Origin: Squalus acanthias
Taxonomy: Eukaryota
Reading direction: 5' to 3'
Assembly (NCBI GenBank): GCA_030390025.1
Contig: CM059431.1
Span: 99,388,001-99,452,000, forward strand
DNA length: 64,000 bases
Each line of letters begins with the position of its first letter. The first letter of the stretch is position 1. A program made the position numbers and the translations under genes. Shown piece by piece: positions 24,441 through 64,000 of this stretch. The notes beneath the pieces are model-generated. The model was not told the origin of the DNA and searched no databases. It saw nothing but the letters and a program-made list of their open reading frames with translations.

Positions 24441-25224
24441 TCCAACAATTTACAGCATTGTTTGGATTCTGGTTTATAGGCCATAAACCCTGCATGACTG
24501 ACAACATATTGGTTCCTTCAATAGAAGACAATTTGATGCCTCTGTCTTCTATTGAAACCGATAAAACCTCGCATGCATCAGCGACGTGCTGAGTTTTTTT
24601 TTGGAGTGTTCGAAGCAGTGGAAATTGCTGACTGCACTTTCAAAAGATGTGTCTATATGCAGATAGATTAGCTGGCCGAGCTTTGTAGAGAGGTAAAATA
24701 TCACGATCGTGACATTGCGATGATTATTGTAAGAACCTCTGTAAAGATTAGTAACATTAGCAATTTTAATTTACCAAAATTTGCTCACTGTTTGTGGATG
24801 TTTAATTGTGTGACTATCAACCAGCTAATGGAGCTGCTTCAGAACTAGAGGAAATAGCACTTTAAAAAAAAAACACAGAGAGGATGAAGAGATGAGTCAC
24901 GTCTAAATTAATTGAGCAAATCATAACCAGCTCACTTGTAGGTTATTTGGCTTGCTCTTTTGTAAAATTTCAAAGACCTTTCCTTCCGTTTCGTGTGCAT
25001 TAGACCCCTGGAACAGTCCACCATACTGAACAGTAGACCAACTGGCAGCACATGGTGAGCAGTGCCCCAGTGATCTTTAAGCGCCTTGGGACATTGCCTA
25101 CATTAAAGGTGCGATATTAATGTTATTGAGCTGTTGTTCTTAGCTTCATGGACTGAAACCTCAGCAACCGGCAGGCAAAGAAGTGCCTGAGTGCTCCCGT
25201 ACGTGGGACAAGGACTTCCCAAAT

Positions 25225-26036
25225 TCTTTCTCTCTCTTTCTCTCTTTCTCTTTCTTTTACTCTCTTTCTCTATCTCTCTCTGTCTCTTTCTCTCTCTCTC
25301 TCTCTCTTTCCTCTCTCTTTCTCTCTCTCCCTTTCTCTCTTCCTTTCTCTCACTCTCTCTCCCTTTCTCTCTCTCTTTCACTCACTCTCACTTTCTTTCT
25401 CTCACTCTCTCTCCCTTTCCCTCTTTGTCTCTTTCTCTTTCTCTCTCTCTTTTTTCTCTATCTCTTTTTTCTCTCACTCTCCCCCTTTCTCTCTCTCTGT
25501 CTCTCTGACTTTCTCTCTCTCTCCCTTTCTCTCACTCTCTCTCCCTTTCTCTCTTCCTTTCTCTAACACTCTCTCTCTTTTTCACTCACCCTCTCTTTCT
25601 GTGTGTGTAGCTCTTTTTTTCTCTCTTCTTTCTCTCACTCTCTCCCTTTCTCTCACACTCTCTCCCTTTCTCTTTCTGTCTTTCTCCCTTTCTCTCACTC
25701 TCTCCCTTTCTCCCTCTCTCCCTTTCTCTCTCTGTCTCTCTCTCCCTTTCTCTCACTCTCTCCTTTTCTCTCTTACTTTCTCTCTTTCTCTCTCCCTTTC
25801 TCTTTCTGTCTCTCTTACTTTGTCTCTCTTACTCTTTCTCTTTCTCGCTCTCTCTCTTTCTCTCACTCTCTCTCTCCCTTTCTCACTCTCTCTCTATTTC
25901 TCTTTGTCTCTCTCTTTCTCTCACTCTCTCTCCCTTTCTCTCACTCTCTCTCCCTTTCTCACTCTGTCTCTCTCTTTCTCTCACTCTCTTTTTCTCTCTC
26001 ACTCTCTCTCTGTGTGTATCTCTCTCACACACACAC
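25225..26036. repeat. ~810-bp imperfect (CT)n polypyrimidine tract
   Basis: Almost pure C/T on the + strand, with a recurring higher-order motif CTCTCCCTTTCTCTCACTCT. Confidence 0.97.
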
Positions 26037-26756
26037 AATCTATTAAAATAATATTCAATTAAAATAGCAGTACCAAATGAAAATTCTTCCTGTAAGGATT
26101 TTTGTCTGAGTTATCTGTTGCTTTCTGCTGTGCAGGCAGCCCGAGAAGTACAGGTTTATTTGATAAAAGACAGCTACTCGACAGGGGTGAGTAACCTATT
26201 ATTCTAGACGACATTTGAGCTTCCATATAAATGGTGTAGTGAAGCTTAAACCCGATTCAATCCGATCTACCGTAAAACGTGCCCTCAGTGTTTCATCTTT
26301 TGCTTTTGACCTTCGGGGGAACTTTTGCCGTGAGATGCTTCTAACTAATTACACCAGTAATTAATTAATTACACTCATAATACCCTATTTTAATGACTTG
26401 AAAATAATACAATTAGATAAACACTGATTTATAAACAACAGCATGAATCAGTCCAACGCTCACTTGTTACAGAAGGTTTGTGCTTTTACAACATTCCAAA
26501 TCCTTGGCCCACAATTTGCAATCGGGATGAGGGTGAACTGGCAACGTGTGCAGCCCTATTGCTCGCTCACTTTAACTTACAGTTGTATTTTTTATATGTA
26601 TTTACCTATATTTATATATTTACATTTATATACATATAAATATACACATTCTTTTAAAATAAGCCTGATACTTAACTAAGATTAAAATGGCTGTAAAATG
26701 GACTTGCTCCTAAATTATGCAGTATACACACAAGGTAACAGTGCCATTAAGGTGGA

Positions 26757-27818
26757 AGCTGTGACTCAGTGGGCAGTACTCTCGCCTCTGAGTCAGAAGG
26801 TTGTGAGCTCAGGTCCCGCTCCAGAGACTTCAGCACAAAAATCCAGGCTGACACTCCAGTGCAGTACTGAGGGAGAGCCGCACTGTCGGAGGGGCAGTAC
26901 TGAGGGAGCGCCGCACTGTCTGAGGGGCAGTACTGAGGGAGCGTTGCACTGTCTGAGGGGCAGTACTGAGGGAGCGTTGCACTGTCTGAGGGGCAGTACT
27001 GAGGGAGAGCCGCACTGTCGGAGGGGCAGTACTGAGGGAGCGCCGCACTGTCTGAGGGGCAGTACTGAGGGAGCGTTGCACTGTCTGAGGGGCAGTACTG
27101 AGGGAGCGTTGCACTGTCGGAGGGGCAGTACTGAGGGAGTGCCGCACTGTCGGAGGGGCAATACTGAGGGAGCGCCGCACTGTCGGAGGGGCAGTACTGA
27201 GGGAGCGCCGCACTGTCGGAGGGGCAGTACTGAGGGAGCGCTGTACTGTCGGAGGGGCAGTACTGAGGGGGCGCTGCACTGTCGGAGGGGCAGTACTGAG
27301 GGAGCGCTGCACTGTCGGGGGGCAGTACTGAGGGAGCGCTGCACTGTCAGAGGGGCGGTACTGAGGGAGCGCTGCACTGTCGGAGGGGCAGTACTGAGGG
27401 AGTGCTGCAGTTTTGGAAGGTCAGTACTGAGGGAGCGCTGTACTGTCGGAGGGGCAGTACTGAGGGAGCGCTGCACTGTCGGAGGTGCCGTCTTTTGGAT
27501 GAGACGTTAAACCGAGGCCCCGTCTGCTCTCTCGGGTGAATGTAAAAGATCCCATGGCAGTATTTTGAAGAAGAACAGGGGAGTTCTCCCCAGTGTCCTG
27601 GGGCCAATATTTATCCCTCAACCAACATCACTAAAAAACAGATTATCTGGTCATTTATCACGTTGCTGTTTGTGGGAGCTTGCTGTGCGCAAATTGGCTG
27701 CCGCGTTTCCCACATTACAACAGTGACTACACTTCAGAAAAGTACTTCATTGGCTGTGAAGCGCTTTGAGACGTCCGGTGGTCGTGAAAGGCGCTGGAGA
27801 AATGCAAGTTCTTTGTTT
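26757..27818 (+). mobile_element. Deu-SINE with internal minisatellite expansion
   Basis: Head and core as in 19411-19878. Confidence 0.9.
26862..27485 (+). repeat. 33-bp minisatellite, ~19 units
   Basis: Unit CAGTACTGAGGGAGCGCYGCACTGTCGGAGGGG. Confidence 0.97.
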
Positions 27819-29046: not shown

Positions 29047-30778
29047 TCATAGAATCGTAGAATCATAGAAAGTTACGGCACAGAAGGAGGCCATTCGGCC
29101 CATCGTGTCCGCGCCGGCCGACAAAGAGCTCTCCAGCCTAATCCCACTTTCCAGCTCTTGGTCCGTAGCCCTGTAGGTTACGGCACTTCAAGTGCATATC
29201 CAAGTACTTTTTAAATGTGATGAGGGTTTCTGCCTCTACCACCCTTTCAGGCAGTGAGTTCCAGACTCTCACCACCCTCTGGGTGAAAAAAGTTCTCCTC
29301 AACTCCCCTTTAAACCTCCGACCAATTACTTTAAATCTGTGTCCCCTGGTTATTGACCCTTCTGCTAAGGGAAATAGGTCCTTCCTATCCACTCTATCTC
29401 GGCCCCTCATAATTTTATACACCTCAATCAAGTCTCCTCTCAGCCTCCTCTGTTCCAAAGAAAACAACCCCAGCCTATCCAATCTTTCCTCATAGCTGAA
29501 ATTCTCCAGTCCAGGCAACATCCTTGTAAATCTCCTCTGCACCCACTCTAGTGCAATCACATCCTTCCTGTAATGTGGTGACCAGAACTGTACACAGTAT
29601 TCTAGCTGTGGCCTAACTAGCGTTTTATACAGTTCAAGCATAACCTCCCTGCTCTTGTATTCTCTGCCTCGACTAATAAAGGCAAGTAATCCGTAAGCCT
29701 TCTTAACCACCTTATCTACCTGGCCTGCTACCTTCAGGGATCTGTGGGCATGCACTCCAAGGTCCCTCTGTTCCTCTACACTTCTCAGTATCCTGCCATT
29801 TATTGTATATTCCCTTGCCTTGTTAGCCCTCCCCAAATGCATTACCTCACACTTCTCCGGATTGAATTCAATTTGCACTGTTCTGCCCACCTGACCAGTC
29901 CATTGATATCTTCCTGCAGTCTACAGCTTCCTTCTTCAGTATCAACCACACGGCCGATTTTTGTATCATCTGCAAACTTCTTTATCATACCCCCTACATT
30001 CAAGTCTAAATCATTGATATATACCACAAAAAGCAAGGGACCCAGTACTGAACCCTGCGGAACCCCACTGGAAACAGCCTTCCAGTCACAAAAACACCCT
30101 TCGACCATTACCCTTTGCTTCCTGCCACTGAGCCAGTTTTGAATCCAACTTGCCACTTTCCTTTGGATCCCATGGGTTTTACTTTTGTGACCAGTCTGCC
30201 GTGTGAGACCTTATCAAAAGCCTTGCTAAAATCCATATACACTACATCAAACGCACTACCCTCATCGACCCTCCTTGTTAGCTCCTCAAAAAATTCAATT
30301 AAGTTAGTCAGATATGACCTTCCCTTAACAAATCCGTGCTGACTGTCCTTGATTAATCCATGCCTTTCTAAATGAAGATTTATCCTGTCCCTCAGAAGTT
30401 TTTCCAATAATTTTCCCACTACCGAGGTTAGGCTGACTGGCCTGTAATTACTCGGTCTGTCCCTTTCTCCCTTTTTAAACAAAGGTACAACGTTCGCAGT
30501 CATCCAGTCCTCCGGCACCACACCTGTAGCCAGAGAGGATTGGAAAATGATGGTCAGAGCCTCTGCTATTTCCTCTTTTGCTTCTCTTAACAGTCTGGGA
30601 TACATTTCATCCGGGCCTGGGGATTTATCCACTTTCAAAACTGCTAAGCCCCTTAATACTTCCTCTCTCACTATGTTTATTTCATCTAATATTTCACACT
30701 CCTCCCCCCCCTCCCCGATTGCAATGCCTACATCGCCCCTCTCTTTTGTGAAAACAGACGCAAAGTATTCATTAAGAA
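29047..30778 (-). mobile_element. CR1 LINE, 1.7 kb, RT domain (frameshifted ORF2 pseudogene)
   Basis: KSPGPDEMYPRLL, NYRPVSLTSVVGKLLE, SQHGFVKGRS, FADDTK and LVRPQLEYCVQFWSP, spread over three reading frames. Confidence 0.97.
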
Positions 30779-35744: not shown

Positions 35745-37070
35745 GAATAGAATGACACAGCACAGGAGGAGGCCGTTCGGCCCATCGTGCCTGTGCCGGC
35801 TCTTTGAAAGAGCTGTCTAATTGAAACATATAAGATTCTGAGGGGGTTGGACAGGGTAGATGCTGGGAGGATGTTTCCCCTCGTGGGGGAATCTAGAACT
35901 AGGGGACACAGTTTCAGGATAAGGGGGTCACACATTTAAGACGGAGATGAGGAGGAATTTCTTCTCTCTGAGGGTCGTGAATCTTTGGAATTCTTTACCC
36001 CAGAGAGCTGTGGAGGCTGGGTCATTGAATATATTCAAGGCGGAGATAGACAGATTTTTGAGCAACAGGGGAGTCGAGGGTTATGGGGAGCGGGCAGGGA
36101 AGTGGAGTTGAGGCCAAAATCGGATCAGCCTTGATCTCATTAAATGGCGGAGCAGGTTCGAGGGGGCGAATGGCCTGCTCCTATTTCTAATGTTCTTATG
36201 TTCTATCCAGTTAGTCCCACTCCCCCCTGCTCTTTCCTCATAGCCCTGCAAATTTCTCCTTTTCAAGTATTTATCCAATTCCCTTTTGAAAGTTACTATT
36301 GAATCTGCTTCCAGGCAGCGCATTCCAGATCACAACAACTCGCTGCGTAAAATGTATTTCCTCATGTCGCCTCCCGTTCTTTTGCCTATCACCTGAAATC
36401 TGTGCCCTCTAGTTACCGACCCTTCTGCCACAGTTTCTCCTTATTTAATCTATCAAATCCCTTCAAGATTTTAAACACCTTTATCAAATCTCCTCTTAAC
36501 CTTCTCTGCTCTAAGGAGAACAATCCCAGCTTCTCCAGTCTCTCCACGTAACTGAAGTCCCTCATCCCTGGTACCATTCTGGTCAATCTCCTCTGCACCC
36601 TCTCCAAGGCCTTGACATCTTTCCTAAAGTGCGGTGCCCAGAATTGGACACAATACTCCAGCTGTGTTTTATTAAGTTTTAGCATAACTTCCTTGCTTTT
36701 GTACTCTATGCCTCTATTTATAAAATTGAGAGGTCGCACAACACCAGGTTATAGTCCAACAGTTTTATTTGAAATCACAAGCTTTCGGAGCTATCGATCG
36801 CTTGTGATTTCAAATAAAACTGTTGGACTATAACCTGGTGTTGTGCGACCTCTCAATTTTATAAATAGAGGCATAGAGTCTCAATTTTGTCCACCCCAGT
36901 CCAACACCGGCATCTCCGCATCATGACCTCTATTTATAAAGCCATGGATCCCGTACGCTTTTTTAACAGCCTTCTCAACTTGTCCTGCCACCTTCAAAGA
37001 CTTGTTTACGTACACCCCCAGGTCTCTCTGTTGCTGCTCCCCCTTTAGAATTGTACCAATTCGTTTATGC
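35745..37070 (-). mobile_element. CR1 fragment hosting an antisense CR1 (35818-36205, +) and a PLE mini-element
   Basis: QRDLGVYVNKSLKVAGQVEKAVKKAYG / FINRGIEYKSKEV / LEYCVQFWAP are collinear around the insertions. Confidence 0.9.
36725..36926 (+). mobile_element. Palindromic Penelope-pLTR mini-element, copy 1
   Basis: 14-bp TSD CCTCTATTTATAAA (36711-36724 / 36927-36940), inverted arms, and the same tail (TTTGTCCACCCCAGTCCAACACCGGC) as 60896-61111. Confidence 0.85.
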
Positions 37071-56507: not shown

Positions 56508-56834
56508 TTAAGATGAAGAAGTAAAGTGTAACAACAGTGGACATGGTATGTGGGGCCACATATATCTTAGCATCAAGGCATAATTTTAAAGCAAGGATCA
56601 CTTTTTTAAAAATATCAAAAAATATCAGGCGGATGAAGAGAATTGGGATTAACTTTTAACGTGCAGTTTCGGTTAAATAGTAACCTCTGGTGACATCATC
56701 AGGGGAACTTGCTGGAAGAAGTTACTGTACCCAACAAAGAGAGAAGGCCAATTAGTACATGGTGCCGATGAATAAGTGGTTTAACGCGCTGCATTAATCA
56801 CAGTACTGAGTGACTGTAATAAATCCTGACAACT

Positions 56835-57585
56835 GTCAGCTGCGGCTCAGTGGGCAGCACCCTCGCCTCGGAGTCAGAAGATCGTGGGTTCAAGTCCCAC
56901 TCCAGAGACTTTAGCACATAATCCAGGCTGACACTCCCAGTGCAGTACTGAGGGAGTGCCGCACTGTCGGAGGGGCAGTGCTGAGGGAGTGCCGCACTGT
57001 CGGAGGGGCAGTACTGAGGGAGTGCCGCACTGTCGGAGGGGCAGTACTGAGGGAGTGCCGCACTGTCTGAGGGGCAATACTGAGGGAGTGCTGCACTGTC
57101 GGAGGGGCAGTACTGAGGGAACGCTGCACTGTCGGAGGGGCAGTACTGAGGGAGCGCCGCACTGTCGGAGGGGCAATACTGAGGGAGTGCTGCCCTGTCG
57201 GAGGGGCAGTACTGAGGGAGCGCTGCACTGTCGGAGGGGCAGTACTGAGGGAGCGCCACACTGTCGGAGGTGCCGTCTTTTGGATGAGATGTTAAACCCG
57301 TCTGCTGTCTCAGGTGGACGTAAAAGATCCCACGGCACTATTTCGAAGAGCAGGGGAGTTCTCTCCGGTGTCCTGGGCCAATATTTATCCCTCAGTCAAT
57401 ATCACTAAAACAGATTATCTGGTCATTATCACATTGCTGTTTGTGGGAGCTTGCTGTGCGCAAATTGGCTGCTACGTTTCCCACATTACAACAGTGACCA
57501 CACTTCAAAAATACTTCATTGGCTGTAAAGCGCTTTGGGACGTCCTTAAGTCGTGAAAGGCGCTGTAGAAATGCAAGTCTTTTTT
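56835..57585 (+). mobile_element. Full-length Deu-SINE with 10 x 33-bp expansion (56943-57270)
   Basis: A and B boxes, array, core and tail all present. Confidence 0.92.
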
Positions 57586-57735: not shown

Positions 57736-58358
57736 TCAGGGTGCAATTACACTGGACAATTTTTGCACCATGAAGAGATTCTGACTGCATGTTGGCACAA
57801 ACCTGGGCAGGATTATCCAAAATTCAGCTGCCCGTGTCCTAACCTGAACCAGGCCTCTCTCATCATTTGCCCCGTTTTCACTGGTCTACCTTGTTCCACG
57901 GGGCCTCCAATTTAAAGTTCTTGTCGCTGTGTTTAAATCCCTCTATGGCCTTTCTCCTCCCTATGTCTGTGCCCATCTCCCGTCCTACAAACACCCGCTT
58001 CCTGAACTCACCGGCCTCTCGTGTCTCGCTCCTCCCATTGCCATTAGTGTTCCCTCAGACGCATAATTCCCACTCTTTGGTATTCGCTCCGTAGACCCCT
58101 CTGTCTCTCCATCTCCCTGCACTTCTCCACTGTCCACCGCCTTTCCATCACCCTCCATCTCCCCCCTCCGTCTCCCCCATCCGTCTCCCCCTCCATTGTC
58201 TCCCCCTCCCCTGTCTCTTTCTCTCTCGCTCTCTCCTTGCTCTGTCTCTCTCTCTCTTATTTTCTCTCTTTAACATAATTGCGAGGCAAGGCTTTCCAGG
58301 AAATTGGACACCATGGAACTATTGAAACTTAATTTTTAATCATTTTAATGTTAACCGA

Positions 58359-58546
58359 GCTCTCTCTCTGTCTCTCTCTCTCTCTGTCTGTCTCTCTCTC
58401 TCTCTGTCTGTCTCTCTCTCTCTCTGTCTCTCTCTCTCTCTGTCTTTCTCTCTGTCTCTCTCTCTCTCTCTCTGTGTCTCTCTCTCTGTGTGTGTCTCTC
58501 TTTCTCTCTGTCTGTCTCTGTCTCTCTGTGTCTCTCTCTCTGTCTG

Positions 58547-58580
<34 letters not shown>

Positions 58581-58584
58581 TGTG

Positions 58585-58616
<32 letters not shown>

Positions 58617-58650
58617 TCTGTCTCTCTCTCTCTCTCTGTCTCTCTCTGTG
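58359..58650. repeat. (CT)n/(CTGT)n microsatellite
   Basis: Seen directly. Confidence 0.97.
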
Positions 58651-58814
58651 TTGGTTCTTTGTTCAAGTGTTCAGAGGGTGGAGAGCAGAACTCCACTCTC
58701 GATGTCTAAAGAGCAATCAGCAGTTGGTGCTGTAAGTGGTGCTCGCTGGTCCAGCAAGTCCTTCTCTCGAGCTGGTGTTTGGAATATGATGAAGCCTCAA
58801 GATTGCTCCAGTCC

Positions 58815-59440
58815 TAAGAACATAAGAACATAAGAAATAGGAGCAGGAGTCGGCCATTTGGCCCCTCGAGCCTGCTCCGCCATTCAATAAGATCCTGGCT
58901 GATCTTCGACCTCAACTCCACTTTCCCGCCCGATCTCCATATCCCTTGATTCCCCTAGAGTCCAAAAATCTATCGATCTCAGCCTTGAATATACTCAAAG
59001 ACTCTGCATCCACAGCCCTCTGAGGCAGACAATTCCAAAGATTCACAACCCTCTGAGTGAAGAAATTCCTCCTCATCTCGGTCTTAAATGACCGACCCCT
59101 TATCCTGAGACTATGCCCCTAGTTCTAGACACTCCAGCCAGGGGAAACAACCTCTCAGCATCTACCCTGTCAATCCCCTTCAGAATCTTGTATGTTTCAA
59201 TGAGATCACCTCTCATTCTTCTAAACTCCAGAGAGTATAGGCCTAATCTACTCAATCTCTCATCATAGGACAGCCCTCTCATCCCAGGAATCAATCTAGT
59301 GAACCTTTGTTGCACTGCCTCCAAGGCAAGTATATCCTTCCTTAGATAAGGAGACCAAAACTGTGCACAGTACTCCAGGTGTGGTGTCACCAAGGCCCTG
59401 TACAATTGTAGCAAGACTTCCTTACTCTTATACTCCAACC
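58815..59440 (-). mobile_element. CR1 3' fragment
   Basis: EYKSKEVLLQLYRALVTPHLEYCAQFWSP and tail. Confidence 0.92.
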
Positions 59441-60944
59441 CTGTTTTAGTGGGACTTGTGAACTCTAGTCAACAGGTGTCAAAAGGCTAACAGTGATGCA
59501 AGGAAGAGTGAATCTAACCTTCCATCAGAAGTATTGATTGTGTTTTACGTACAAATGCTTTAAGGTCACTGCACAGAGAATCTAATCTCACATAATCTTT
59601 CTCAGTTTGCCCATGGCTAAGTGGGTGAAGATGACATGGAAAAAGTATTAACAGGAAACAGTTACAACATGCACAGTGGTTGAAAATAACCAGTATTTGA
59701 GACTATATTGAGTCACAACTTATAGTGTCAGCCTTAATTTTTGACGGAATCCAACAAAACTGCTGAAAGATGAACTGCTTCGACCCAGACATGATTATTG
59801 TGTTCAATTTGATTGCAGCCATGCTCGGCTATTACCTGCCTGTCTTTTCTAACACTTTGGAGAATTTCAGTTTCATTTACAGCCTCTGTTCGATGCAGGG
59901 GTGAATGTGCTGCTGCCCTTGGCAAAGTCCATTTGAGCAAATGAACAAAGGATATCATCATGGTATTGACCCTGCATCTATCGGAGTTTAATTATCAACC
60001 ACTGAGACCAGTTGAGATTCAGTTACAACCAATATCCTACCAGCAGAATGGATGAACAGTGTCAACACAGGGTTTGAGAAGGAGTCGCAGATTTACACAG
60101 GTACAGAGCGAGAACCAATGCTAGACAGGGAGAAGCTACTAATACACACACAGGGCGAGGGGCACACAGGAGAGAGACTGAGAAAGGCATAGATACAGTG
60201 GGTGAAAAAGAACAGAAGACCGCAGATAGAGAGAGAGGGGGGAAACCACAGGTACACATGGAAGGGAAAGAGAGAGATCATAGAATCTTAGAATCATAGA
60301 AATTTACAGCACATAAGGAGGTCATTAGGCCCACTTTGTCCGTGCCGGCCGACAAAGAGCTATCCAGCCTAATCCCACTTTCCAGCTCTTGGTCCGTAGC
60401 CCTGTAGGTTACGGCACTTCGAGTGCATATCCAAGTACTTTTTAAATGTGATGAGGGTTTCTGCCTCGACCACCCTTTCAGGCAGTGAGTTCCAGACCCC
60501 CACCACCCTCTGGGTGAAGAAATTTCTCCTCAACTCCCCTCTAAACCTCCTGCCAATTACTTTAAATCTATGCCCCCTGGTTATTGACCTCTCTGCTAAG
60601 GGAAATAGGTCCTTCCTATCCACTCTATCTAGGCCCCTCATAATTTTATACACCTCAATTAAATCTCCCCTCAGCCTCCTCTGTTCCAAAGAAAACAACC
60701 CCAGCCTATCCAATCTTTCCTCATAGCTAAAATTCCCCAGCCCAGGCAACATCCTCGTAAATCTCCTCTGCACCCTCTCTAGTGCAATCACATCCTTCCT
60801 GTAATGTGGTGACCAGAACTGCACGCAGTACTCTAGCTGTGGCCTAACTAGTGTTTAATACAGTTCAAGCATAACCTCCCTGCTCTTATATTCTAGTGAG
60901 AAGTCGCACAACACCAGGTTATAGTCCAACAGCTTTATTTGAAA

Positions 60945-60977
60945 TCACAAGCTTTCGGAGCGCTGCTCCTTCATCAG
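60945..60977 (-). ncRNA. Second hammerhead core on the opposite strand (5' strand of stem I missing)
   Basis: Minus strand CUGAUGA-A-GGAG-CAGCG-CUCC-GAAA-GCUU-GUGA. Confidence 0.65.
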
Positions 60978-60980
60978 ACT

Positions 60981-61017
60981 TCACCTGATGAAGGAGCAGC
61001 ACTCTGAAAGCTTGTGA
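60981..61017 (+). ncRNA. Minimal type-I hammerhead ribozyme (PLE type)
   Basis: UCAC-CUGAUGA-A-GGAG-CAGCA-CUCU-GAAA-GC-UU^GUGA. Stem I is UCAC/GUGA, the core is intact, and palindromic AGCU replaces stem III. Predicted cut after 61013. Confidence 0.75.
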
Positions 61018-62017
61018 TTTCAAATAAAGCTGTTGGACTATAACCTGGTGTTGTGCAACTTCTCACATTTGTCCACCCCAGTCCAACACCGGCAACTCCA
61101 CATCATGGACACTTATATTCTATGCCTCGGCTAATAAAGGCAAGTATCCCGTATGCCTTCTTAACCACTTTATCTACCTGTCCTGCTACCTTCAGGGATC
61201 TGTGGACATGCACTCCAAGGTCCCTCTGATCTTCTGCACTTCTCAGTGTCCTACCATTTATTGTGCATTCCCTTGCCTTGTTAGCCCTCCCCAAATGCAT
61301 TACCTCACACTTCTCCAGATTGAATTCCATTTGTCACTTTTCTGCCCACCTGACCAGTCTATTGATATCTTCCTGCAGTCTGCAGCTTTTTTCTTCATTA
61401 TCAACCCCACGGCCGATTTTTGTATCATCTGCAAACTTCTTAATCATACTTCCTACATTCAAGTCCAAATCATAGATACATACCACAAAAAGCAAGGGAC
61501 CTAGTACTGAGCCCTGCGGAACCCCACTGGAAACAGCCTTCCAGTCACAAAAACACCCGTCGACCATTACTCTTTGTTTCCTGCCTCTGAGCCAATTTTG
61601 GATCTAACTTGCTACTTTGCCTTGGATCCACTGATAAAACCACTGACAGACAGTGAAGGAATGAAAACCAAGATGTGCAGAGGAAAGCAAAGAGAAAGAG
61701 AATATTAAAAACCAGCAAGAGAAAAGTTCAGATGCAGAGACAGAGAACGAAACACTGCGGGTAAAGAGAAATAGAGAAACCACAAGTAGTGACACAGAAA
61801 GTGAAAACTGCAGAAACAGAAAAAGGAAAGAAAACAGAGATAGAGAACAAGAAAGAAAGAGAAAGGCATTGCGAGTGAAAATGACAGATGTATACCGAGG
61901 AGATAGAGAGATAGAGAGAGCACTTGAGAACCCGTATACCTTTGGTTAAGGATGCGTGTCGTCATTAAGCTGCGCTGTTCTACATGTCACAATCATTATT
62001 GTCTACAGTACTGGGAT

Positions 62018-62482
62018 TGGTAGCATTGTGGTTATGTTACTGGACTACCAATCCACAGTAAACGAGTTCAAATCCTGCCACGGCAGCTGGGGAATTTAAA
62101 TTCGCTTACTTTTTCTTCCAGATTTAAAAAAAATGATCAGTAATGGTGGCCATGAAACTATCGGATTGTCGTAAAAACCCATCTGGTTCACTAATGTCCT
62201 TTAGGGAAGGAAATCTGCTGTCCTTACCCGGTCTGGCCTATATGTGACTCCAGACCCACAGCAATGTGGTTGACTCTTAACTGCCCTCTGAGATGCCCTA
62301 GCGAGACACTCAGTTGTAACAAACCGCTACGAAACACAATAATAAGAATAAAACCGGACGGACCACCACTGGCTTTGGACATGACAATGGCACATTGCAA
62401 CGGCTCACCACCACCTTCTCGAGGGCAATAAATGCCCACCTTGCCAGCAACACCCACATCCCAGGAACAAACAAAAAAAAAG
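62018..62482 (+). mobile_element. tRNA-headed SINE-like element with the family J LINE 3' tail
   Basis: A-box-like TAGCATTGTGG, B box GAGTTCAAATC; 62400-62480 matches the J tail; poly-A end. Confidence 0.7.
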
Positions 62483-62723
62483 ATAAATCCTTTCTGTGTA
62501 ATATAACATTGACTGACCATTGTAAGGGCTGGGGATTGAATCCTGTGTTCATCTGAACTTGGAACCTTAAGACAGAAAAACGCCCCTATTTAGTTCTAAA
62601 TAGGTTCAGTGGTTTGGATGTGCTTAAGTAAAAATCAAGGGCCAGTTCTGGCTATATAATGCTGGGAACTGTACCAAAAAGTGACAAAAATCAACATTTT
62701 CTGGGGGGAGCACGTTCACAAAT

Positions 62724-62823
62724 GCCCCCCCCCCCCCGCCCCACCCACCACCCCCCCACGGCCCCCCCGCCCCGCCCACTACCCACCCCACGGCCCCACC
62801 CCCCGCCCCGCCCACCGCCCCAC
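62724..62823. repeat. C-rich low-complexity tract (G-quadruplex-prone on the minus strand)
   Basis: More than 10 C-runs of 3 or more with short spacers. Confidence 0.85.
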
Positions 62824-62869
62824 TGAAGTAGACGTTGCACCTTTACAGTCCACTTTCTCTTTCAACAAT

Positions 62870-63385
62870 TTTCATCGCTCCACCATTGCCGGCCGTGCCT
62901 TCAGCTGCCTGGGCCCTAAGCTCTGGAATTCCCTCCCTAAACCTCTCCGGCTCTCTCTCCTCCTTTAAGACGCTCCTTAAAGCCTACCCTTTTCCTGTCC
63001 TAATATCTCCTTATGTGGCTCGATGTCAAATTTTGTTTGATAATCGATCCTGTGAAGCACCTTGGGATGTTTTACCACGTTAAAGGCGCTATATAAATGC
63101 AAGTTGCTGTTGTATCTGTATATGTATTTTTTTATTCTAAGAAGAGCAGGGGAGTTCTCCCCGGTGCCCTGGCCAATATTTACCCCTCAATCAACATCAC
63201 TAAAAACAGATTATCTGGTCATTATCACATTGCTGTTTGTGGGATCTTGCTGTGCACAAATTGGCTGCCGTGTTTCCTACATTACAGCAGTGACTACACT
63301 TCAAAAAAAATACTTAATTGGTTGTAAAGCACATTGGGACGTCCTGAGGTGGTGAAAGGCGCTGTAGAAATGCAAGTCTTTCTAT
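62870..63385 (+). mobile_element. L2 3' end (62870-63112) followed by Deu-SINE 3' half (63140-63385)
   Basis: Homology to other copies in the window. Confidence 0.88.
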
Positions 63386-64000
63386 CTTTTTATTTTCAAT
63401 TCCATTGGTCAGAGGGCTGACTTTTATCGATTTATAGAATAGATTTATTTTGGAATGTGTCAGAGGTTTACATAAAGGCCTTTCCTCCATGGTATTCGTC
63501 CCACAGCTGTAGTACAAGAGGGTCTGTGAATCGAATCCCAAGTAATGATTGCTCCTCCGGATGACCTGGATTCCCCACTTTCAGTGTCTCTTGAAACACA
63601 AATCGACAGCTAAGTATTCAAAACATCCTTTCCAAATTACACGAGAGAAAGGAAAGCACAGCTCCAGTCAGGCTGCTTTGATTGTGATGGTGTTCAGTTG
63701 ATTGAAGATAATTGTCCATTAATGTAGATGCTACCTGTGTCATATCACCATTCTCAAAGAGTTGTTGTAGTCTGTTGTAGAGATCTTGTTCCCAACAATG
63801 TCAAACCTATAAGTTGCTTTTAAATGCTCTGTTCCAGTCCTGTTTTATGTTCCATATGTGATCCACAGTAAAGGAGGAAACTCCTCTATCTCTTTATCTT
63901 GCCAGACTCATGTTGTCTATGAAATATGGCTGTCATTCCTTCGCTTTATATTTGAATTAAAGGTCACTCTCCTACTGTTCACCCATCACCCCCTGTGCTC

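Follow-up and report, generated by a model that had tools for sequence, protein, structure and literature searches.

Penelope-like elements (PLEs) that are endonuclease-positive (EN+) are described as inserting in a characteristic unit, which comprises an inverted pLTR, a tail of 30-40 bp at one end and a target-site duplication (TSD), and junction palindromes are typical of their insertions (PMC3846280, PMC8557442). Pairs of minimal hammerhead ribozymes (min-HHRs) on opposite strands have been attributed in PMC4209133 to truncated PLEs. In the in vitro work of PMC11167929, AT-rich DNA is cleaved on both strands by a PLE protein that then extends each of them, its reverse transcriptase (RT) begins at two positions of the RNA, one on either side of the tail, and the hammerhead, which the protein assists, is dispensable for insertion. 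The origin of the inverted copies and of the tails is still presented as open in PMC8557442 and PMC11167929.

In a 64-kb window, the whole stretch of DNA that was analysed, sequence self-comparison delimited a fold-back insertion of 216 bp at 60896..61111. We conclude that this insertion is very probably a dead-on-arrival, heavily 5'-truncated stub of an abundant endonuclease-positive PLE, with the hammerhead that it contains being a passenger of the pLTR. An initial annotation had described an 11-bp TSD, 82-bp arms that start at a CUGAUGA core (one per strand), a 7-nt centre and a 45-nt tail; all of these, together with the coordinates, were reproduced, and the core was found on both arms (Table 1).

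The two arms (60896-60977 and 60985-61066) are complementary at 79 of 82 bases, and the hairpin that they form has a folding energy of -155 kcal/mol (z -22), a value equalled by none of 200 shuffles. CpG transitions account for all three mismatches between the arms, and in each case the letter that departs from CpG stands in the right arm. Because the left-arm letters at 61005 and 61057 are those of the family majority in contigs of two sequencing runs, X3 and X15 (the majority letter at 61005 being C), it is the right arm that has decayed. With regard to the target site, an uninterrupted LINE paralogue (29549-29802), which is 91-95% identical, holds the 11 bp once, and the TSD is therefore real.

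Table 1. Positions of the features of the two insertions and of their target, in window coordinates.
Feature	Position	Strand	Details
Left TSD copy	60885..60895	.	11 bp, CTTATATTCTA; 9/11 A/T
Right TSD copy	61112..61122	.	same 11 bp, CTTATATTCTA
Inverted PLE end, without tail, 5'-truncated	60896..60977	-	outer end corresponds to 61066, the first 3' end of the family
Centre, 7 nt	60978..60984	+	5' edge of the direct copy; 60979-60984 identical in PLE contig L004
Direct arm	60985..61066	+	3' part of PLE pLTR
PLE tail, 45 nt	61067..61111	+	
Minimal type-I hammerhead, plus	60981..61017	+	stem I 60981-84/61014-17; extra A 60992; stem II 60993-97/61001-05, with two CpG changes; AGCU 61009-12; predicted cut after 61013
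Hammerhead core, minus	60945..60977	-	5-bp stem II intact; 5' strand of stem I missing
Host LINE remnant (RT ORF region)	60289..61500	-	right limit is where reading stopped
Second insertion, same family, 202 bp	36725..36926	.	inverted arm, palindromic junction, direct arm without hammerhead core, captured flank, tail
Inverted left target flank, 22 nt	36858..36879	-	copy of 36703-36724, between arm and tail of the second insertion
TSD of this insertion, 14 bp	36711..36724	.	other copy 36927-36940

PLE relatives and the hammerhead cores

The assignment to PLEs comes from relatives of the insertion. A degenerate hammerhead pattern matched six metagenome loci, of which L002, L003 and L004 were kept and L001, L005 and L006 were dropped as chance matches, consisting of one repeated sequence that lacks hammerhead stems; the same pattern had no match in genome contigs or in viral contigs, and exact 23-nt patterns had none in viral or metagenome contigs. 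L003 resembles the focal arm (78% over 74 nt) and carries the C-terminus of a PLE-type endonuclease (GIY-YIG) ~250 nt upstream (E 6e-4 and 0.003). In L004 a 177-aa endonuclease-like frame lies upstream of the hammerhead motif, and two longer relatives of this ORF contain RVT_1 (P0002, E 5.6e-8) and a weak GIY-YIG match (P0001, E 0.0086, below the cut-off); as L004 was the query, its match to P0001 and P0002 is circular, and the information added is the RT domain. In L002 the hammerhead motif is accompanied by a fragment of RT that the other strand encodes. What L003 and L004 share with the focal copy includes the stems and the motif that follows the core. Pfam recognised neither the L004 ORF nor the L003 frame, and tblastn found no PLE ORF within the window. 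The link to PLEs runs through relatives that are 78-87% alike over 39-74 nt, the ORF of the exact family being absent from the material compared.

These relatives also account for the centre of the focal insertion. CTTCAC precedes the core in both L004 and L002, and six of the seven centre bases are therefore PLE sequence; read in this way, truncation of the direct copy simply falls 6-7 nt upstream of that of the inverted copy. A short way behind the focal hammerhead lies an AATAAA hexamer (61023-61028), which L004 and L002 likewise have downstream of their motif and which is absent from L003. A Zn-finger-like linker between RT and endonuclease is a mark of the Neptune clade. A CxxxxCxxC linker precedes the endonuclease in L004, P0001 and P0002, all of which are relatives of the focal family; the focal element may be of the Neptune type. 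This Cys-rich linker of the relatives (Neptune/Nematis-like) is a difference from PAc, the Poseidon element of Anolis carolinensis described in PMC11167929, which resembles the focal family in having two RNA starts that bound the tail, an AT-rich target and an uncleaved template; the PAc start sites lie inside the ORF according to that source.

Two of the metagenome loci have features of their own. L004, a marine metagenome contig, contains a 109-nt inverted repeat (94%; 1-109 and 983-1091) around the endonuclease ORF and 3' region. L003:520-990 is a truncated PLE end inside AT-rich sequence that appears gene-dense and microbial or viral, for which either chimerism of the contig or insertion of a PLE into the genome of an organism other than an animal could account.

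Several features identify the window copies as EN+ PLE insertions. Through L003 and L004 the focal sequence is the 3' end, or pLTR, of an element with RT and GIY-YIG domains; a neighbouring inverted, 5'-truncated copy is present in 2/2 window copies; a tail of ~30-40 bp is confined to one arm in both, with two alternative 3' ends; and TSDs of variable length, 11 bp (82% AT) and 14 bp (79% AT), mark targets that are AT-rich relative to the window (54%). Of the readings put forward in the initial annotation, that of a minimal PLE insertion, in which an inverted partial pLTR goes together with a minimal type-I hammerhead, is supported. Like the canonical unit, the insertions combine a head-to-head inverted copy, a one-sided tail and a TSD (11 and 14 bp, beside 8-10 bp in the rotifer examples), and the second copy has a junction palindrome. 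Unlike that unit, the focal copy is without any ORF and its tail is about 40-45 nt, and in the second copy inverted target flank separates the arm from the tail. New PLE insertions in an alga have a median length of 128 bp as given in PMC9977147, so the size of the focal insertion is ordinary, and the single locus, one stub among very many, matters little in itself.

With regard to the ribozyme, the plus copy has the CUGANGA, GAAA and UH core, helix I, helix II, an extra base after A9 and palindromic 15.2-16.2 of a minimal type-I hammerhead. The UCAC/GUGA stem I, extra A and AGCU that had been annotated are all present, with cleavage predicted after 61013, and bases 60981-60984, within the centre, form the 5' strand of stem I. 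Of the features that PMC4209133 lists for the minimal PLE hammerhead, it lacks just the G10.1-C11.1 pair, one of the stem II changes having replaced it with G10.1-U11.1, and stem II has -1.5 kcal/mol here compared with -5.8 kcal/mol in the other arm. The minus core lacks helix I; AAGU lies where the 5' strand of stem I belongs, giving two wobbles and two mismatches, and judged from this sequence the core cannot fold by itself as a type-I ribozyme. The claim of two hammerhead cores accordingly stands for the core sequence, which is present on each strand, but neither core is intact, the minus one being without stem I and the plus one having two changes in stem II. The plus copy resembles the min-HHRs of PMC4209133 in its 4-bp helix I, the extra base between 9 and 10.1, palindromic 15.2-16.2 and the lack of helix III, and the opposite-strand pair resembles those ascribed there to truncated PLEs; it differs from them in the 5-bp focal helix II, in the loss of G10.1-C11.1 from the plus copy and in the distance between the cores (7 nt, as against 100-700 bp in the pairs of that source).

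Across four rows (the focal copy, L002, L003 and L004, two of the rows being one family), 35/36 cells of the two stems are paired, stem I contains one compensatory change, and position 17 varies (U/C/A). This pairing is well above that of slid controls (25-56%), but 125/500 shuffles reach it, and the stem covariation appears consistent with a hammerhead without being strong. An Rfam search of 58000-64000 gave no hammerhead match at E<=10; its miRNA-hairpin matches were rejected as generic hairpin matches below the gathering scores. Folding of 60978-61030 as a single copy gave no hammerhead fold (z 0.66), which is expected for the minimal motif and uninformative. Most likely, the focal hammerhead is a decayed passenger from the pLTR.

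Family ends, inversion junctions and routes of insertion

In order to follow the family beyond the window, we compared a query (60978-61140) with four sequencing runs: X3, a DNA run that is possibly from the source sample and hence not independent; X15, guessed to be RNA; and two runs of raw reads from other organisms, X22 and X23, which added almost nothing (9 and 0 reads matched). The query was matched by 8510 of 18.6 million contigs in X3 and by 1540 of 1.08 million in X15. Among the matches listed, the best-supported loose ends in X3 lie behind 61070 (41 contigs) and at 61106-61108 (52, 52 and 29 contigs), with 13 rows of loose ends listed and 141 more, as well as 10101 pieces, beyond them. 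The flanks at these ends agree at 0.37-0.42 around an AT-rich consensus and are mixed. The two clusters are those of the arm end and of the tail end, in agreement with the pair of RT start sites published for PLEs, and as family ends cluster at 61106-61108, the final 3 nt of the focal tail may be junction filler. Contig depth falls toward the hammerhead side, a trend confounded with the query edge, and the focal junction (60977/60978) sits at that edge, where the comparison cannot count its copies. One X3 contig, on reaching 61105, returns to 61074 after 15 further letters, so that the tail is duplicated.

The inversion junctions differ in 4/4 visible cases, two of which are single rows among the matches listed. 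In direct-arm coordinates the 5' edges are 60985/60978 in the focal copy, about 61001/61010 in the second window copy and 60982/61026 in one single X3 contig; a loose end in X15 (2 contigs), read from a 30-letter consensus, is made up of 18 nt of the inverted arm that abut 61062. The last of these reads as an ultra-short insertion in which the inverted arm runs straight onto the tail. Three of the eight junction edges fall within 60978-60985. A pause of the RT at the hammerhead structure is possible, and the near coincidence of the focal arm ends (7 nt apart, at the hammerhead) is beyond what random truncation explains.

These junctions bear on the explanation that the insertion belongs to a discrete fold-back family without autonomy, whose copies would be transcribed in their own right and mobilised again by PLE proteins, an explanation that we consider very unlikely. 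The tidy symmetry of the focal arms at the hammerhead core would suit such a family, as would the fold-back form and size (about 200 bp) of both window copies, the presence of the family in X15 and the non-autonomous PLE families that PMC8557442 describes. However, many copies with one inversion junction would be its hallmark, and the junctions found all differ, albeit in a small and partly filtered sample; the initial annotation, which had suggested a retrozyme-like family, had itself named scattered inversion points as the outcome that would speak against one, and no tandem arrangement was seen in 59000-63000. Moreover, the second copy is without the core and holds its own target flank, which argues that it was built at its site, and among the matches listed just one single contig has an opposite-strand joint, a weak point given the query edge. 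Our search of open papers returned nothing on a fold-back hammerhead mini-family.

For the PLE stub that we favour, a staggered cut (the TSD), two 3' ends and a head-to-head join are directly evident in the focal copy. A PLE protein would have cut the AT-rich site in the LINE remnant with an 11-nt stagger, giving rise to the TSD; two short copies of the RNA 3' region would have been made, one from the inner start (the arm end) and one from the outer start (the tail end); and the two would have been joined head to head. As both focal arms cross the hammerhead cut site, we infer that the RNA template was uncleaved. L1-style twin priming uses non-overlapping RNA segments, and it was rejected for the focal copy because both arms copy the same segment. 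Two routes may be envisaged. In the first, each nick would prime its own cDNA, such that the left arm would derive from the top-strand nick and the inner start site, and the tail and right arm would be cDNA that began at the outer start site with the bottom-strand nick as primer. In the second, a single cDNA would snap back and copy itself. For the focal copy we place these routes close to level, leaning slightly towards two-nick priming.

The most informative single clue is the captured flank of the second copy. The inverted repeat of this copy spans 80 nt at 100% identity with the 22 nt of flank included, and palindromic filler lies at its arm junction. Since the 22-nt flank can have been copied only from DNA of the site, snap-back or template switching occurs at least sometimes. 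The search of open papers found nothing on capture of a flank between arm and tail. Short insertions hold both junctions within 200 bp, and a population of them could separate two-nick priming from snap-back.

RNA-based alternatives

A functional role for the locus, as an RNA switch or a source of small RNAs whose read-through transcript either self-cleaves or forms a hairpin of dsRNA that contributes to silencing the family, is highly improbable. The focal hairpin is very stable, and small RNAs from Penelope copies have been described in a rotifer (PMC3846280). Against this, the antisense arm is transcribed ahead of the ribozyme strand on both strands, the bases of the core are paired with the opposite arm (P about 0.97), opening the plus hammerhead costs 53.5 kcal/mol and both cores are damaged; the annotated switch between cleavage and dsRNA is not supported. 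A host gene was not found: none of 150 non-repeat ORFs matched Pfam (of 175 listed, the other 25 being low-complexity or overlapping ones and a few others), a search that would miss short exons. Any read-through transcript of the focal locus would, according to the folding model, be a stable hairpin. A passive source of siRNA is conceivable, and a switch is nearly excluded. A discrete family or a switch, if true, would be a new kind of ribozyme element, and the evidence points against both.

That the insertion is a solo monomer of a non-LTR retrozyme, a tandem hammerhead repeat spread via circular RNA, is scarcely credible: its length (within 150-450 bp), GC content (<50%) and TSD (>4 bp) are those of retrozymes in PMC7229834, where the metazoan examples are likewise small, non-coding, PLE-linked and equipped with a type-I hammerhead, and retrozymes are reported to derive from PLE pLTRs and to occur in one chondrichthyan genome (bioRxiv 10.64898/2026.07.22.740005), but they are head-to-tail repeats with a canonical hammerhead per unit on one strand, whereas the focal copies are head to head with cores of the minimal PLE type on opposite strands, and 59000-63000 contains no head-to-tail tandem units with hammerheads.

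The LINE target site and its surroundings

The host of the focal insertion is the RT-coding region of a LINE remnant, putatively CR1. The LINE ORF at 60369-60854 shares 95% identity with a paralogue at 29138-29920, and the adjacent and paralogous LINE ORFs match Pfam RVT_1. When LINE RT-coding copies are aligned, the TSDs at 60885-60895 and 36711-36724 adjoin, the subfamilies concerned being ~75% alike, and approximately six LINE copies in the window cover the target site. By an after-the-fact estimate, the chance of a second insertion within 20 bp is roughly 0.4%, or ~5% if only AT-rich 11-mers (8% of the window) are counted. In five single X3 contigs, arm positions 61044-61065 run on into 61110-61116 (in four of them after unknown letters), which hints at further insertions at this site; the query of that comparison included just 29 nt of LINE and lacked a control site, and most flanks are mixed. 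The LINE target site would on these sequences be at most a hotspot, and the search of open papers found nothing on PLE targeting of a LINE site. A broader proposal, that such mini-insertions are in-vivo prints of PLE integration (two RNA starts, two staggered nicks and snap-back into the flank) and that the focal family has a preferred site, beyond AT-richness, in the RT-coding region of an abundant LINE, we regard as doubtful.

By self-comparison, about half of the window, which is probably DNA of a cartilaginous fish, consists of repeats. Elsewhere in it are two arrays of a roughly 33-nt tandem unit with long repetitive open frames (26747-27510 and 56798-57408), and long CT-rich microsatellite tracts at 25106-26110 and 58326-58833.
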